Counted from the first letter of the stretch, positions 43,618-63,825 are shown. The stretch: DNA of 64,000 nucleotides from a phage (GCA_017822615.1 GCA_017822615.1_4530.1), one strand, 5' to 3'. Notes: generated by a model not told the origin, from the letters alone. A program made the numbers and translations.

Positions 43618-43647
43618 TTGAAACCTCTTAAAAACAGATATCCCATA

Positions 43648-43682
43648 AATCTTAGTCTACAGGATATTTGTTGTTTTGTCAA
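43648..43682 (-). promoter_or_regulatory. minus-strand promoter with ctaTTGACAA -35 motif
   Basis: ttgtcaatag at 43674-43683 on the plus strand; upstream of the 43617 start. Confidence 0.45.
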
Positions 43683-43710
43683 TAGAAAAATTAAAAAATA
43701 TTAAATATTT

Positions 43711-50971: not shown

Positions 50972-51180
50972 ATAAATGTGGTAACAGAGACGCTGACGAT
51001 TGTAGAGAACCGCTACATTCTCTAAGACCAAGCCCAACTTTCAGCGTAAAAGTTCTTGAGCCGAGACTATTCCTTTTCCTCTTTGGTAGCTAACCTCTGA
51101 AGAAGTAGTCTCTAACACTACCGCAGTGCAAGCCCCTCTTAACAAAAGTCAACGACCCTGTTACCACACTTGATGAACGT

Positions 51181-51210
51181 ATCCTAACATATGAAGGATA
51201 CGTTTGTCAA
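51181..51210 (-). promoter_or_regulatory. tRNA promoter P3 (ctaTTGACAA, aTGtTAGGAT)
   Basis: ttgtcaatag at 51203-51212; reads toward the tRNA-Met/Arg end of the cluster. Confidence 0.5.
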
Positions 51211-51474: not shown

Positions 51475-51726
51475 CTAATCTGTTAGTTGTTCGTCCTCTA
51501 CCAAGTTTGACACGAGAACGTCTGTTATACATTGATGCTGATAAACCCTTTCGGGACTATCATCAAAAGCCAAACCTGTGCAAATAGAACAGAGGTCTGA
51601 TTCCTTGATGACTCCATTTTTATCACGTCTGGAGTGGTTTGTCAAATGCCTATTACAAGCACGGCACCTAAAATAAAAGCTATTTTGCATATATCCTTCG
51701 AACCCCAAATGGGGAGTGATCGGCAT
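51475..51726 (-). CDS. hypothetical Cys-rich protein
   Basis: 83 aa with CxxC...CxxC; poor SD spacing; overlaps a plus-strand track ORF. Confidence 0.35.
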   Translation of the reverse strand: MPITPHLGFEGYMQNSFYFRCRACNRHLTNHSRRDKNGVIKESDLCSICTGLAFDDSPERVYQHQCITDVLVSNLVEDEQLTD

Positions 51727-51763
51727 CTCCTCACTTCTAGTTTAGCACGAAGGATATCTTAAG

Positions 51764-51949
51764 TCAACTAGGAATAATTTTATCCTTTTTGGTTTCATAA
51801 CCAGTCCAATCTAAATCCTCCCAGCCTTCATCATCGTCTAACACATTGTCATCATCATAAGATGCAATGTTATAAATAGAACGTGGATTACAAGACATAC
51901 AATCTTTAATAGGCACATGATGCCATTTGCACGGATTCTCACTAATCAT
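51764..51949 (-). CDS. small acidic Cys-containing protein
   Basis: 61 aa; RBS GGAGG; Asp/Glu-rich C-terminal half. Confidence 0.5.
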   Translation of the reverse strand: MISENPCKWHHVPIKDCMSCNPRSIYNIASYDDDNVLDDDEGWEDLDWTGYETKKDKIIPS

Positions 51950-59736: not shown

Positions 59737-60462
59737 ATGATCGAGAATTTTTTTAAAGATATTAAGTTCGATACTGAATTTTTCAAAAATGCAGCGAAGC
59801 ACGTGATTGATTGGAATGCTAAAGCACGAGGTGGTGAACAACCTGAATTCACTCAAGAGCTATTTATGTCCCAAATCGGATTCGTTCGTGAAGAGCTTAA
59901 AGAGTATGAAACAGCCGCGAAAGTAAACGATCATGTAGAACTCTTGGATGCAGCAGCGGATATTTTTGTAGTATCCAGTTATCTGACCTACATGTTCTTT
60001 GGTGAAGAACATACGATGAATTTCTTGGACTATGCTGTAGGCGATGTTTTTACTCCAACTGTGTATACTGATTTTGATGCTTTGGAACAAACATTTACAG
60101 AGCCAGTTCAAATGGCACTAATGGCTGCTGGTATTATGCGTATGTCTCGTGACACTCTAATCCGTTCAAAATATCCAGAAAAGAAAGTTATTAAAGAGGT
60201 ATTGAAAAGTAATGATTCCAAGTATCCAACTAAACAACAGTTGCTGAAAACTTGGAAAACTTCGGATATCGATTCAGCCATTGCACAAGAATGCGCTGCA
60301 ATTGAAGAACGAAATGCCAATCGTCCAGAAGGGGCATACACTGGTGTTCATGCTGTTTATAATGAAAAACAGAAAGTGTATGTGTTCTTTGATGATAAAG
60401 GTAAGATCATGAAACCATCGACCTTTGTCAAACCTAATATTGCAGGTATTATTAATAAGTAA
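59737..60462 (+). CDS. MazG-like nucleotide pyrophosphohydrolase domain protein
   Basis: EELKEYE ... ELLDAAADIF matches the MazG E-E-x2-E / E-x2-D metal-binding helices; 241 aa. Confidence 0.45.
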   Translation: MIENFFKDIKFDTEFFKNAAKHVIDWNAKARGGEQPEFTQELFMSQIGFVREELKEYETAAKVNDHVELLDAAADIFVVSSYLTYMFFGEEHTMNFLDYAVGDVFTPTVYTDFDALEQTFTEPVQMALMAAGIMRMSRDTLIRSKYPEKKVIKEVLKSNDSKYPTKQQLLKTWKTSDIDSAIAQECAAIEERNANRPEGAYTGVHAVYNEKQKVYVFFDDKGKIMKPSTFVKPNIAGIINK

Positions 60463-60518
60463 TGTTGTAAGCCGCCCTTTATGGGCGGTAATGTGAGATG
60501 TATTAAATAGGAGGAAAC

Positions 60519-61397
60519 ATGTTTGTAAAATCTTTTAAATCCGCTCTGCCTATGGTTGTTGGTGACAATGCTTCTGTAGCATCCCTTAACAGCATTACAG
60601 ATATTCCTCTGGAATTTGTAACAGCAGAAGGCTCCCAGTCACACACTATCGGTCTTGTTCGTTTCGAAGATGACTCTAAATTTGTAAAAGAGTTTTCAGA
60701 TCTTGAACTGCTTAATGTAGGTCAATCTGTGAAGAAGGTAGATAAAAAGAAAGTTAAACGTATTCTGAATGAACGTCTAGAAGAAATGCGTCAGGACATG
60801 GAGAGCGAAGGTAAAGAGTTTTATGTCGATAAAGAAGTAGTCAAAGCAATGAAAGAAGATATTGAATTTGCACTATTGCCTGAAACAGAACCTGAAGATT
60901 TCTTTAACTATGTTGTCTTGGATAAAACTACGAATCTTCTTTATGTTCTTAATGGAAGTAAAAAGGTTGCAGAAGAGATTACTTCTTTCCTCCGTTCCGT
61001 CCTGGGGACTTTCCCTTCGGTAGGTTTTAGTGTGCACGAAGAAGCTATTGTAAAAGGTTTTGGTGAATTGCTGGAGAATCACGAAGCAGATCGTATTACT
61101 CTCGGAAATTATATCAAAATGGAGGATAGCGAGGGCGTTGTTGTTTGGAGTAAAGAATCTCTATACGAGTCTAAAGCTGTCGAACTAAAAGAAGATGGTA
61201 AAGATGTTGTTGCAATCGGTCTTGAATATGACGGTGTTGTAGATTTTGTAGTGGATAAAGAGTTTAAACTTTCTAAACTACGTTTTCCGAAATATTTTGC
61301 AGACGAAGAAGGTAGTATTGAAGCTTCAGTCCTTCTGTGCTTCAATGAGATTCGAGGTCTGATGGAAGATTTAACCAAAGCAACAATCCTTAAATAA
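60519..61397 (+). CDS. hypothetical protein (possibly recombination-associated)
   Basis: 292 aa; RBS AGGAGG; no decisive motif. Confidence 0.5.
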   Translation: MFVKSFKSALPMVVGDNASVASLNSITDIPLEFVTAEGSQSHTIGLVRFEDDSKFVKEFSDLELLNVGQSVKKVDKKKVKRILNERLEEMRQDMESEGKEFYVDKEVVKAMKEDIEFALLPETEPEDFFNYVVLDKTTNLLYVLNGSKKVAEEITSFLRSVLGTFPSVGFSVHEEAIVKGFGELLENHEADRITLGNYIKMEDSEGVVVWSKESLYESKAVELKEDGKDVVAIGLEYDGVVDFVVDKEFKLSKLRFPKYFADEEGSIEASVLLCFNEIRGLMEDLTKATILK

Positions 61398-61401
61398 GTT
61401 C

Positions 61402-61430
61402 TTGACTTGCGGGATTAGTTATGATATTAT
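61402..61430 (+). promoter_or_regulatory. promoter TTGACT-N17-TATTAT
   Basis: Lies between the 61397 stop and the terminator hairpin; predicted start site falls inside the 5' arm of that hairpin. Confidence 0.5.
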
Positions 61431-61459
61431 GCCTACCTACTTAATGAGGTAGGCTTTTT
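61431..61459 (+). terminator. rho-independent terminator overlapping the promoter output
   Basis: gcctacct-acttaatg-aggtaggc 8-bp stem followed by TTTTT. Confidence 0.55.
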
Positions 61460-61469
61460 AGGAGGCGTT

Positions 61470-61679
61470 ATGAAAAAGATTCTGACAGTCGTTCTTTTAG
61501 CTTTTAGTTTCACAGTAGCAGCAGGTCAAATTACTTTAATCTTGTCTGATTCTGAAGTTAATGGCAACACAAAATATTGCTACTATTCTAACGCTAACCA
61601 AGATGAAGTTATAGCAATCCCGAAAAGTCGTCAATGTCCGTATACTAAAACATTCTCAACAGAGGATGACGATGAATAA
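61470..61679 (+). CDS. small secreted protein with signal peptide
   Basis: 69 aa; MKKILTVVLLAFSFTVAAG signal-like N-terminus, two Cys, acidic C-terminus; RBS AGGAGG. Confidence 0.55.
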   Translation: MKKILTVVLLAFSFTVAAGQITLILSDSEVNGNTKYCYYSNANQDEVIAIPKSRQCPYTKTFSTEDDDE

Positions 61680-61691
61680 TTAGGGGGAAAT

Positions 61692-62810
61692 ATTAGCGGT
61701 TATATTTTAATTAAACCTGAAGATCTTCATTTATATGTCAACGAAGAAACAATAGCTGCAATTGATTATGATCAGATCGCTTTCCAAGCAGCGTCTGCAT
61801 TAGAGAAAAGAACAATCATTGCGAAGCACATCCCTTCAGGTGCTCAAAAGGAATTTAAAAATAAGACAGAGTTTTGGGGTAAAAGCAAGACTAAAATTGG
61901 AGGTTGGCTAGGAGATACAAATGCAGAAAGAGCCTCCAAAAACAAACGTCCCTTCACAAAGGAAGAGTTCGAAATCATTGATAAGCAATATCCGCCAGAA
62001 GATATCGGACACACCTTCCAAGCAGCTAAAACAAAAGTCTTAGGTATTCTAAAACATCTACGTTTAGAAAAATATTGCGGAGTTATTGGCGTAGGAAAAA
62101 CTTTCAGACACGCCTTCAAAATGCCTGTAGAATATAAATCTGAACGATTAGATATCAAACCACTCCAGCTTTCAGAAACCAAAGATTATCTTGTGGAGTT
62201 CCACAATGGTGATGTTGTTACTGTAATAGAAGCTGATGATGAGTTAGAGAAGTATGGTTTCCAAGGTTATAAAGATTATAAAAGGACGGGTAAATTTTCT
62301 TATATCGTTGTATCTATAGATAAAGATAGTTTACATACTCCTAGTATCCTTTTTAATTTCTACAAAGAGGATGGAGTATTTAAAAATCCAGATATAATTC
62401 TTATTGACGAGTCTATTGGCGACATATGGATCGTAGATAAAGGTAAAAAGAAAGAAGTTAAAGGTTGGGGCAGTTACTGGTTAGCATATCAGATGCTAAT
62501 GGGAGATAAAACAGATAGTATCCGACCTTATCAAGATTTTGATATTAAGTTCGGAGATATTACTTGTTTTAATCTTCTTTCAGCTTGTAAAACTCAAGCA
62601 GAACTTTTCCAAACAGTTAAAGATACTTACTACTCATGGTTCCCAGATGGTGTTAATTTTACTTCTTGGGATGGAGAAGAAGTCCATATGACAACAGATG
62701 AATGGATAGAAACAATTTTCCAGTTGGTATACATGAAACGCTGGGATAATGACGATACAACATTTGAGAGTATGCTTCAGTCATACATCTCGCAACAGGA
62801 GGCAGAGTGA
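61692..62810 (+). CDS. 5'-3' exonuclease / flap endonuclease (T7 gp6-like), non-canonical start
   Basis: Frame open from 61680; AIDYDQIAFQAASA resembles T7 gp6 MDGDWLVFQAMSA, VVSIDKD resembles IISCDKD, GDKTDSI helix; no ATG/GTG/TTG before 62121, so ATT at 61692 after AGGGGGA is proposed. Confidence 0.5.
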   Translation: MSGYILIKPEDLHLYVNEETIAAIDYDQIAFQAASALEKRTIIAKHIPSGAQKEFKNKTEFWGKSKTKIGGWLGDTNAERASKNKRPFTKEEFEIIDKQYPPEDIGHTFQAAKTKVLGILKHLRLEKYCGVIGVGKTFRHAFKMPVEYKSERLDIKPLQLSETKDYLVEFHNGDVVTVIEADDELEKYGFQGYKDYKRTGKFSYIVVSIDKDSLHTPSILFNFYKEDGVFKNPDIILIDESIGDIWIVDKGKKKEVKGWGSYWLAYQMLMGDKTDSIRPYQDFDIKFGDITCFNLLSACKTQAELFQTVKDTYYSWFPDGVNFTSWDGEEVHMTTDEWIETIFQLVYMKRWDNDDTTFESMLQSYISQQEAE

Positions 62811-63766
62811 GCAGATTAACAGAAGAGCAGAAAGCAGATATCCTTAGTATGAGTGCAGAGGGTATGTCTTCTCGCAATATTGCAGCAATTGTTTTAGGTA
62901 GTCCAACAAGAAAAAGCACAGTGAACGATTTCCTTGCACGATTCGGAGCAAGTAAACAAGAGCCAGTTAAAAAGAAACAACCAGTTATTAAAATTATTGA
63001 TGTTGAAACTGCACCAGAGATTGCATATACTTTCCGTCGATTCAAAGCCTTCATTTCTCCAGATCAAGTAATTCGTAGGGGTTATTTGTTATCTTACTCT
63101 TCTGCCGACCTGTATACTGGTGAAGTGGAAGGTAAGAACTTGTCTTCTTATCCTCTTTTTGATATTGATCATACAGATGATTGGGAGCTTTGCCAAGATC
63201 TTTGGAACCTTCTGAATGAGGCAGATGTAGTTGTGGCACACAACGGATATAAGTTTGACCGTGCATACATTAACCAACGATTTGCATATCACGATATGGC
63301 TCCTCCTTCTAATTATGTAGTTGTTGATACATTGAAGGCAGCTAAGAAACAATTTGCACTTCCTTCCAACTCCCTTAAAGAAATGGGAGCATATTTCGAA
63401 ACAGAAAGTGAAAAACTGGATAACGAGGGGTTCCCTTTATGGAAAGCATGTTGTGAAGGTGATCGTGATGCTTTTGAACGTATGCAGATTTACAATGATG
63501 GTGATGTTGTTTCGCTCCGTGATTTGTATATGAAAATCCTTCCGTGGATTCCACAGCATCCTAACTTATCCGCTTATTACACAGATGAGAAGGTCCGTTG
63601 TTCTCGTTGTGGCAGTGATCACGTTCACGTTGTTACTGGTAAACAATACCACACTGCGGTAAGTTCTTTCGATATCATTCGTTGTGAATCTTGTGGAGGT
63701 TTGTCACGTAGTAGAGCAAACACCAGATCCAAAGATAAACGAGCAGCAACTATTATTGGAATCTAA
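62807..63766 (+). CDS. DnaQ-like 3'-5' exonuclease with N-terminal HTH and C-terminal zinc ribbon
   Basis: GTG start; HTH-like NIAAIVLGSPTRKSTVNDFL; Exo I IDVETA, Exo II VAHNGYKFD, Exo III YNDGD; CSRCG...CESCGG. Confidence 0.6.
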   Translation: MSRLTEEQKADILSMSAEGMSSRNIAAIVLGSPTRKSTVNDFLARFGASKQEPVKKKQPVIKIIDVETAPEIAYTFRRFKAFISPDQVIRRGYLLSYSSADLYTGEVEGKNLSSYPLFDIDHTDDWELCQDLWNLLNEADVVVAHNGYKFDRAYINQRFAYHDMAPPSNYVVVDTLKAAKKQFALPSNSLKEMGAYFETESEKLDNEGFPLWKACCEGDRDAFERMQIYNDGDVVSLRDLYMKILPWIPQHPNLSAYYTDEKVRCSRCGSDHVHVVTGKQYHTAVSSFDIIRCESCGGLSRSRANTRSKDKRAATIIGI

Positions 63767-63770
63767 TAAT

Positions 63771-63796
63771 CAGGGAGCTTATTGCTCCCTTTTTTA
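63771..63796 (+). terminator. rho-independent terminator
   Basis: gggagc-ttatt-gctccc hairpin followed by T6. Confidence 0.6.
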
Positions 63797-63825
63797 TTGA
63801 CAAAAATTTGATATTAGTGTATACT
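63797..63825 (+). promoter_or_regulatory. sigma70-like promoter TTGACA-N17-TATACT
   Basis: Same hexamers and spacing as the 3247 promoter. Confidence 0.55.

Follow-up and report, generated by a model that had tools for sequence, protein, structure and literature searches.

Overlap between the terminator of one operon and the promoter of the next has been published for the tufB-secE junction and for other enterobacterial operon pairs (Brandis et al. 2019, PMC6735719). At tufB-secE, initiation from the promoter most likely declines when the RNA polymerase load on the terminator that overlaps it rises, an effect named "promoter exclusion", and the gap between the tufB stop codon and the promoter is 13 nt in Salmonella (PMC6735719). 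We checked the sequence of the same junction in E. coli K-12. The stop codon was followed by 13 nt and then by TTGACG-N18-CATCAT, and the terminator hairpin (-19.9 kcal/mol) occupied bases 110-135 of the locus, with the -10 element in its 5' arm and loop and the predicted transcription start in its 3' arm. A search of the literature on promoters located inside terminators yielded mostly nothing relevant beyond Brandis et al. (2019).

Two further groups of phage loci combine promoters with RNA hairpins. The late promoters of the T4 genes e, soc, 49, and I-TevI are located inside a hairpin (reviewed in PMC3014915). In Pseudomonas phages, premature terminators have been mapped in 5' untranslated regions (UTRs) by ONT-cappable-seq (PMC10914365).

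Genome and Locus

The DNA analyzed here, called the window throughout, is a stretch of 64,000 nt from a phAPEC8-like coliphage (Phapecoctavirus, subfamily Stephanstirmvirinae). Its region 60500-63800 was 100% identical to Escherichia phages vB_EcoM_Schickermooser (MK373788.1) and Ro121lw, at least 99% identical to 33 phAPEC8-like phages, and 95-99% identical to another 32. When the full window was compared to MK373788.1, the two were not base-identical: k-mer anchors were found at several offsets, and one third of them were missing. The window thus comes from a different, mosaic Phapecoctavirus genome and is close kin of Schickermooser.

The junction is a spacer of 72 nt that separates an RdgC-like gene (60519-61397) from an ORF of 69 amino acids (61470-61679), after which two exonuclease genes follow. 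Pfam RdgC is recorded on a product identical to the RdgC-like protein of the window, and many records label this product a recombination-associated protein or an exonuclease. A preliminary description, made from the sequence of the window, had placed a stop codon, a promoter, a terminator hairpin, a ribosome-binding site, and a start codon in this order at the junction. Inspection of the sequence and site scans recovered every one of these elements exactly where it had been placed. The upstream gene and the elements of the junction are as follows.

60519-61397, + strand: rdgC-like gene, 292 aa, the final one of the upstream unit; TAA stop codon at 61395-61397 (ORF list)
61402-61407, + strand: -35 hexamer TTGACT (sequence and site scan); TTGAC is the same in 20/20 relatives
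61408-61424, + strand: promoter spacer of 17 nt (site scan), the 3' end of which is an extended -10 TGa; TG (61422-61423) is present in 20/20 relatives
61425-61430, + strand: -10 hexamer TATTAT (sequence and site scan); T1, A2, A5, and T6 are invariant in relatives
61431-61438, + strand: 5' arm of the hairpin, GCCTACCT (scan and folding), also the discriminator and early transcribed region of the promoter
61436-61453, + strand: hairpin in a slipped register, CCTACTT-AATG-AGGTAGG, 7 bp including one G-U pair (second terminator-like match in the scan)
61437-61439, + strand: predicted start zone C, T, A, 7-9 nt past the -10 (from standard sigma-70 spacing); A61439 follows a pyrimidine
61439-61446, + strand: loop of the hairpin, ACTTAATG (scan and folding), variable in sequence among relatives
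61447-61454, + strand: 3' arm of the hairpin, AGGTAGGC (scan and folding), covarying with the 5' arm
61455-61459, + strand: T5 run, the U-tract of the predicted intrinsic terminator (sequence and scan)
61460-61465, + strand: AGGAGG, ribosome-binding site of the 69-aa ORF, outside the hairpin (sequence)

At the other end of the rdgC-like gene, just 5' of it, a GC-rich hairpin lacking a T-run, GCCGCCC-TTTAT-GGGCGG(T), was found at 60470-60488. It is a terminator in the annotation of phage ASO2A. A weak promoter-like site, TTGTCA-N16-TATTAT, is located 5' of this hairpin, at 60425-60452.

Comparison with Described Systems

The phage junction and tufB-secE have in common a stop codon followed by a few bases and then by the promoter of the next unit, which overlaps the terminator hairpin predicted for the upstream unit. 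At both, the overlap is conserved over a long evolutionary distance and RNA from the promoter would lack the 5' arm. The phage -10 ends at 61430, the hairpin starts at 61431, and the predicted start is inside the hairpin, with a gap of zero in 20/20 spacers compared. The two systems differ in that the phage -10 adjoins the hairpin, whereas the tufB-secE -10 is inside its 5' arm. Furthermore, the phage junction is located in a virulent phage and involves genes of DNA metabolism rather than translation. The predicted arrangement is a phage, deeply conserved case of the terminator-promoter overlap already described.

The logic proposed for the junction is the same as that of T4 e, soc, 49, and I-TevI: long transcripts fold both arms, while RNA from the internal promoter is without the 5' portion and escapes. 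However, the T4 hairpins sequester a Shine-Dalgarno sequence or an AUG and thereby control translation, whereas the predicted terminator of the junction acts on transcription, and the T4 promoters are gp55 late promoters, whereas the junction promoter is of the sigma-70 type. The AGGAGG sequence (61460-61465) and the ATG at 61470 are 3' of the hairpin (61431-61454) and unpaired in the predicted folds. As the ribosome-binding site is outside the hairpin, the junction is not a member of the T4 class. Fold-back inhibition in IS10 and IS50 also depends on a structure present only in externally initiated transposase transcripts, the element's own promoter starting inside the 5' arm; it differs from the junction in that the block is at translation initiation, not termination, and in its mobile-element context.

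The 5'-UTR terminators of Pseudomonas phages (PMC10914365) resemble the junction in that a terminator is found immediately downstream of a phage promoter. Their transcripts start 5' of the whole hairpin and are cut short by it; the opposite is predicted for the junction. No start compatible with the junction -10 includes the full 5' arm, which places the junction outside the class of 5'-UTR premature terminators and attenuators.

Junction Promoter

A sigma-70 weight matrix composed of the two hexamers, the spacer length, and the extended -10 TG was run over the 64-kb window on both strands. As a null model, 200 approximately dinucleotide-preserving shuffles were used. The junction promoter, TTGACT-N17-TATTAT, matched the sigma-70 consensus at 10/12 hexamer positions, scored 14.55, and ranked 12th among all sites of the window on both strands. 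Sites scoring at least 14.5 numbered 12 in the window versus 0.6 +/- 0.9 in the shuffles, and the chance of such a site occurring on the + strand of the 72-nt spacer was ~2e-4. The match is not due to chance.

Approximately half of the top-scoring sites were located in the intergenic 11% of the window, co-oriented with the next gene. Given that the strong sites are concentrated between genes and co-oriented with them, host-type promoters are clearly used by the phage. Several of the top-scoring intergenic promoters share an A/T-rich...TTGACA(A) context, and the upstream context of the junction promoter was like that of other intergenic promoters of the same phage. The ordinary order, in which a hairpin and a T-run precede the promoter, was observed at four strong sites, 3247(+), 33239(-), 48797(-), and 63797(+). 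The junction promoter looks like the other host-type promoters of the phage, but the order of promoter and terminator is reversed.

Predicted Terminator Hairpin

The junction hairpin, which begins 33 nt past the rdgC stop codon, consists of an 8-bp stem (5 GC), an 8-nt loop, and a T5 run. It was the top terminator-like site in a scan of 56-64 kb. The folding energy of the hairpin alone was -12.7 kcal/mol, and the centroid structure of the region was the hairpin itself, at -13.9 kcal/mol. The folding energy of the whole region was unremarkable (z = -0.74), and since this value is not significant, support for the hairpin was taken from conservation and covariation. The hairpin is already a terminator in two GenBank records, those of Schickermooser (ARNOLD, -13.9) and phage ASO2A (TransTermHP/WebGeSTer).

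Conservation across Relatives

Homologous spacers were taken from the window, from the GenBank records of phiWec186, phi92, and Klebsiella phage KP2025, from IMG/VR viral contigs, and from metagenome contigs. The set comprised 20 distinct spacers in five clades, with amino acid identities of RdgC to that of the window of 100, 84, ~68, ~65, 44-46, and 41%.

All 20 spacers contained a -35 with TTGAC fixed and T or A as the sixth base, the extended -10 TG, and a -10 of the form TAnnAT (TATTAT, TATCAT, TACTAT, TAATAT, TAACAT, TAGTAT, or TAAGAT), in which positions 3 and 4 are free. The remainder of the promoter spacer and the flanks were divergent in sequence, and the spacer was 17 or 18 nt long. 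Such a distribution is the pattern expected from selection on predicted sigma-70 contacts, not from general sequence inertia.

In none of the GenBank records inspected was a promoter annotated at the junction. These included the record of ASO2A, the authors of which report having predicted promoters. Sigma-70-like matches are, moreover, common in AT-rich phage DNA: at a loose threshold, 33 were found versus 24 expected. Both points would suit a site that is little used in infection, or not used at all, with the downstream genes served by read-through of a leaky terminator and the bases kept by some other constraint. We regard this as quite improbable, as conservation is placed exactly at the sigma-70 contacts while -10 positions 3 and 4 and the spacer, including its length, vary; as only 0.6 sites per window are expected at the score of the candidate; and as its upstream context is that of the phage's other intergenic promoters.

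The hairpin started at the base directly 3' of the -10 in every spacer (20/20). Other distances were less constant owing to indels: 3-8 nt between the stop codon and the -35, 21 or 24 nt for the hairpin, and 14-20 nt between the hairpin and the ATG. There were 12 distinct hairpin sequences among the relatives, with a full folding energy between -10.8 and -13.5 kcal/mol in all lineages. The stems of the clades were GCCTACCT/AGGTAGGC, GCCCATCT/AGGTGGGC, GCCCTTC/GAAGGGC, and GCCTCTCA/TGAGAGGC. MAFFT/RNAalifold partly misaligned the two 21-nt hairpins, and stem pairs were tabulated from the outside in by a script. Double compensatory changes were detected at stem pairs 4, 5, 6, and 8 (4/8 pairs), with U-G intermediates. 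In one common clade, stem pair 5 was mismatched (U-U or C-U).

A palindrome extending from +1 to +24 past the -10 could also be a DNA operator, bound by a dimeric regulator of phage or host origin that acts on the promoter. Its arms are perfectly palindromic and lie over the start site, and inverted repeats also occur at other promoters of this phage, within or close to the spacer and the -10. Against this, the arms differ between clades while their complementarity is kept, and most lineages have a T-run 3' of the repeat. The U-G intermediates of the + strand are C-A mismatches on the other strand, which is senseless for a DNA palindrome; as these pairs fit only a + strand RNA, a transcript structure is favored and an operator disfavored. 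The operator was rejected on account of the U-G intermediates, and we would now give it only a very slight chance of being correct.

The U-tract was less uniform than the stem. It was T5 in the window and in the L014 clade, T4 in most other lineages, and T3 in several, and in one lineage (KP2025, L028, and L032) it was replaced by ATTAT or ATTAA with the hairpin kept. Retention of the hairpin where the U-tract is gone suggests that termination may not be its sole or universal role. Taken further, the promoter would be real and the hairpin mainly non-terminating: a protective structure at the 3' end of rdgC mRNA, a site for a nuclease or an RNA-binding protein, or a pause signal. Compensatory changes also accompany the hairpin where the run is T3, ATTAT, or ATTAA, and the GC hairpin just 5' of rdgC likewise has no T-run. 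On the other hand, a U-tract adjoins the stem in the window, in the L014 clade, and in most other lineages, the hairpin is a terminator according to two prediction pipelines, and a permissive Rfam search of 60-64 kb returned no match to a known cis-regulatory RNA family. A mainly non-terminating hairpin is, in our judgment, unlikely.

Sequence comparison across the five clades demonstrates that the predicted promoter and the RNA hairpin are conserved at the rdgC junction and locked together.

Predicted Transcription Start and Escape from the Hairpin

Because the hairpin begins directly after the -10, any start compatible with this -10 is inside the 5' arm; starts 5 nt or more past the -10 are necessarily within it. 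The bases 7-9 nt past the -10 were CTA in 19/20 spacers and CAG in 1/20, and the boundary between arm and loop coincided with a pyrimidine-purine step, located 8-9 nt past the -10 or, in one clade, 7-8 nt past it. A pyrimidine-purine step is the favored context in start-site selection by E. coli. We found no transcriptome or start-site study of Stephanstirmvirinae in the literature searched, and a search for transcript-like contigs ending at the junction gave genomic contigs only.

The structure left to RNAs with different starts was estimated from folding energies. In the clade of the window, the energy was -12.7 kcal/mol for the full hairpin, -6.9 for a start at +6, -4.5 at +7, -1.4 at +8, and 0 at +9 (positions counted past the -10). 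The values at +6 and +7 arise because the repeat CCTACCTAC permits a slipped register, CCUACUU/AGGUAGG, that RNAs can adopt only if they start at 61436 or 61437. The phi92-like and Klebsiella-phage clades share this register, whereas the two most distant ones are without it and have 0 kcal/mol from +7 on; in the L014 clade the energy was 0 at every start between +5 and +10. Starts at +8 or +9 retained between -2.5 and 0 kcal/mol in all lineages and between -1.4 and 0 in the window. The preliminary description had held that transcripts of the junction promoter cannot form the hairpin. This fits the predicted +8 and +9 starts and the distant clades but is somewhat too strong for +6 and +7 starts in the clade of the window, where -6.9 and -4.5 kcal/mol would remain.

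It is conceivable that this residual structure is itself the function. RNAs starting at C61436 or C61437 would carry the slipped hairpin, of 6-7 bp, at their 5' end, where it would attenuate the output of the promoter or stabilize the mRNA. With -6.9 (+6) or -4.5 (+7) kcal/mol it could form next to the U-tract, and it is intact in the Phapecoctavirus, phi92-like, and Klebsiella-phage clades, even where the main register has a mismatch. Nevertheless, it needs a C start at +6 or +7, though the pyrimidine-purine step is conserved at +8/+9, for which only 0 to -1.4 kcal/mol are available. It is also missing from the two most distant clades, and for this reason the slipped register was rejected as the main function of the element; we rate such a role as highly improbable.

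Downstream Unit

The genes after the junction and the signals at their end are as follows.

61470-61679, + strand: opening gene of the downstream unit, an ORF of 69 aa with ATG at 61470 and an N-terminus resembling a signal peptide (ORF list)
61692-62810, + strand: exonuclease gene, second in the unit, with a probable start at ATT 61692 and a frame open from 61680
62807-63766, + strand: gene of a DnaQ-like 3'-5' exonuclease, last of the unit (ORF list and annotations)
63772-63795, + strand: terminator closing the unit, AGGGAGC-TTATT-GCTCCCT and T6 (scan), present in phiWec186, phi92, and KP2025
63797-63825, + strand: next promoter, TTGACA-N17-TATACT, in the ordinary order, found in Phapecoctavirus and absent from phi92 and KP2025

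In all relatives, including the most distant (41% RdgC identity), the junction element was followed by a homologous small ORF, and a signal peptide (SignalP) is annotated on the phi92 homologue of the 69-aa ORF, gp086. The unit predicted for the junction promoter is bounded at its 3' end by the conserved terminator at 63772-63795. The signals at 63772-63825 provide a contrast to the rdgC junction, as phi92 and KP2025 retain the terminator without the promoter. Intergenic signals thus turn over in these phages, and the rdgC junction is unusually stable.

The start of the first exonuclease gene differs between records. Some place it at ATG 62121 (229 aa), while the ESCO13 record has a 372-aa exonuclease product called from the position of ATT 61692. 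The stretch between 61680 and 62120 is a conserved, open N-terminal extension of 147 codons that is without in-frame ATG, GTG, or TTG. A strong Shine-Dalgarno sequence, GGGGGA or GGAGG, was detected right after the stop codon of the small ORF in all four lineages (window; L006, 3657-3705; L007, 3667-3766; L008, 3670-4105). A conserved codon, ATT or ATC, and the peptide (I)SGYILIxPEDLH come next in each of the four. Based on the conserved extension, the Shine-Dalgarno sequence, and the ATT/ATC codon, the exonuclease probably starts at ATT 61692.

Proposed Mechanism

We think it probable that the junction is a composite of two transcription units, in which the hairpin stops RNA arriving from upstream and the RNA of the promoter itself escapes. 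The junction would be read by host sigma-70 RNA polymerase. Polymerases of the rdgC unit would transcribe 61431-61459, the RNA would fold into the GC-rich 8-bp hairpin with U5 behind it, and some of the polymerases would terminate. Initiation at TTGACT-N17-TGaTATTAT would begin 7-9 nt past the -10, at the end of the 5' arm. Apart from the loop, the 3' arm, and the U-tract, the resulting RNA would contain nothing of the terminator, so that no full hairpin could form and polymerases would read on. The promoter would drive three genes, encoding the 69-aa secreted protein, the exonuclease, and the DnaQ-like exonuclease, and the terminator at 63772-63795 would close the unit. The promoter would have the GC-rich stem base as its discriminator.

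In its overall reading of the junction, the preliminary description is supported by the comparative evidence. The promoter start position, the termination of read-through RNA, and its efficiency are parts that we infer, termination being deduced from the anatomy of the hairpin, its covariation, and terminator-prediction programs. The description had also ascribed an insulating effect to the arrangement. The terminator would indeed insulate the downstream genes, but the promoter would not be insulated: it is located 5' of the release point, and upstream polymerases must therefore cross it before they are released. By analogy with tufB-secE, strong upstream transcription may dampen the promoter through promoter exclusion.

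A more far-reaching interpretation is that the invariant zero gap between the -10 and the hairpin goes beyond compaction and is a selected coupling device, by which the promoter is held down under strong upstream transcription and released as that transcription fades. We offer this as a possibility, though a doubtful one. If it were true, the junction would time or buffer the operon of the secreted protein and the exonucleases as a switch that needs no factor, with polymerase release ~25 nt inside the promoter. Persistence of the hairpin without a U-tract would then imply a second role on read-through RNA that is independent of termination.

Significance

The junction indicates that the overlap known from ancient bacterial operon junctions also occurs in large virulent phages. 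Here, the juxtaposition of -10 and hairpin has stayed exact to the base over a range in which the identity of the flanking protein falls to 41%. The predicted promoter adds a boundary between transcription units that is missing from the inspected annotations of phAPEC8/phi92-type phages. At ~58 bp, the element would be a compact natural part that closes one unit and opens the next, and it would provide a simple system in which to ask whether initiation inside the 5' arm disables a terminator and whether upstream traffic occludes a promoter. The current understanding of transcription is left unchanged by the junction.

Other Promoter-Hairpin Sites

Promoters next to hairpins were also found elsewhere. 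On the - strand of the Schickermooser record, at 20142-20074, a very strong promoter-like sequence, TTGACA-N18-TGgTATAGT (score 15.9), has a -10 that overlaps the stop codon of gene 58. The annotated hairpin and T-run start 15 nt past this -10, and RNA from the site itself would hold the complete terminator. As this counter-example shows, a promoter 5' of a terminator need not start within its arm, and escape from termination cannot be regarded as a design principle of the phage as a whole. At 27437-27385 (- strand) of the same record, TGaTATACT, the TGA of which is the stop codon of gene 74, is followed by two bases, an annotated terminator hairpin, TTTT, and AAGGAGG. It was considered as a second copy of the geometry in which the start is inside the arm and was dropped, as the -10, the promoter, and the spacing were not kept in phiWec179 or W22. 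The predicted architecture is a specific conserved feature of the rdgC junction, not a genome-wide rule.

At the junction between the portal and prohead-protease genes of the window (43625-43685, - strand), TTGACA-N17-TAGACT was found with an inverted repeat, AACAAATATCC...GGATATCTGTT. The 5' arm of the repeat is in the promoter spacer and the 3' arm past the predicted start, and T5 and a ribosome-binding site follow. Promoter and repeat are kept in phage PaulScherrer and, with alterations and without a T-run, in Klebsiella phage 05F01. This may be another site at which transcription starts within a hairpin.

In the tRNA region, strong promoters at 51170-51210 and 51700-51770 (- strand) were accompanied by inverted repeats with no T-run after them. 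One repeat, AACGTATCCT...AGGATACGTT, extends across the spacer and the -10 (~51204-51176). In another pairing, a segment of the spacer matches a sequence ~60 nt downstream (GATATCCTTCG...CGAAGGATATAT). These repeats could be operators or RNA structures.
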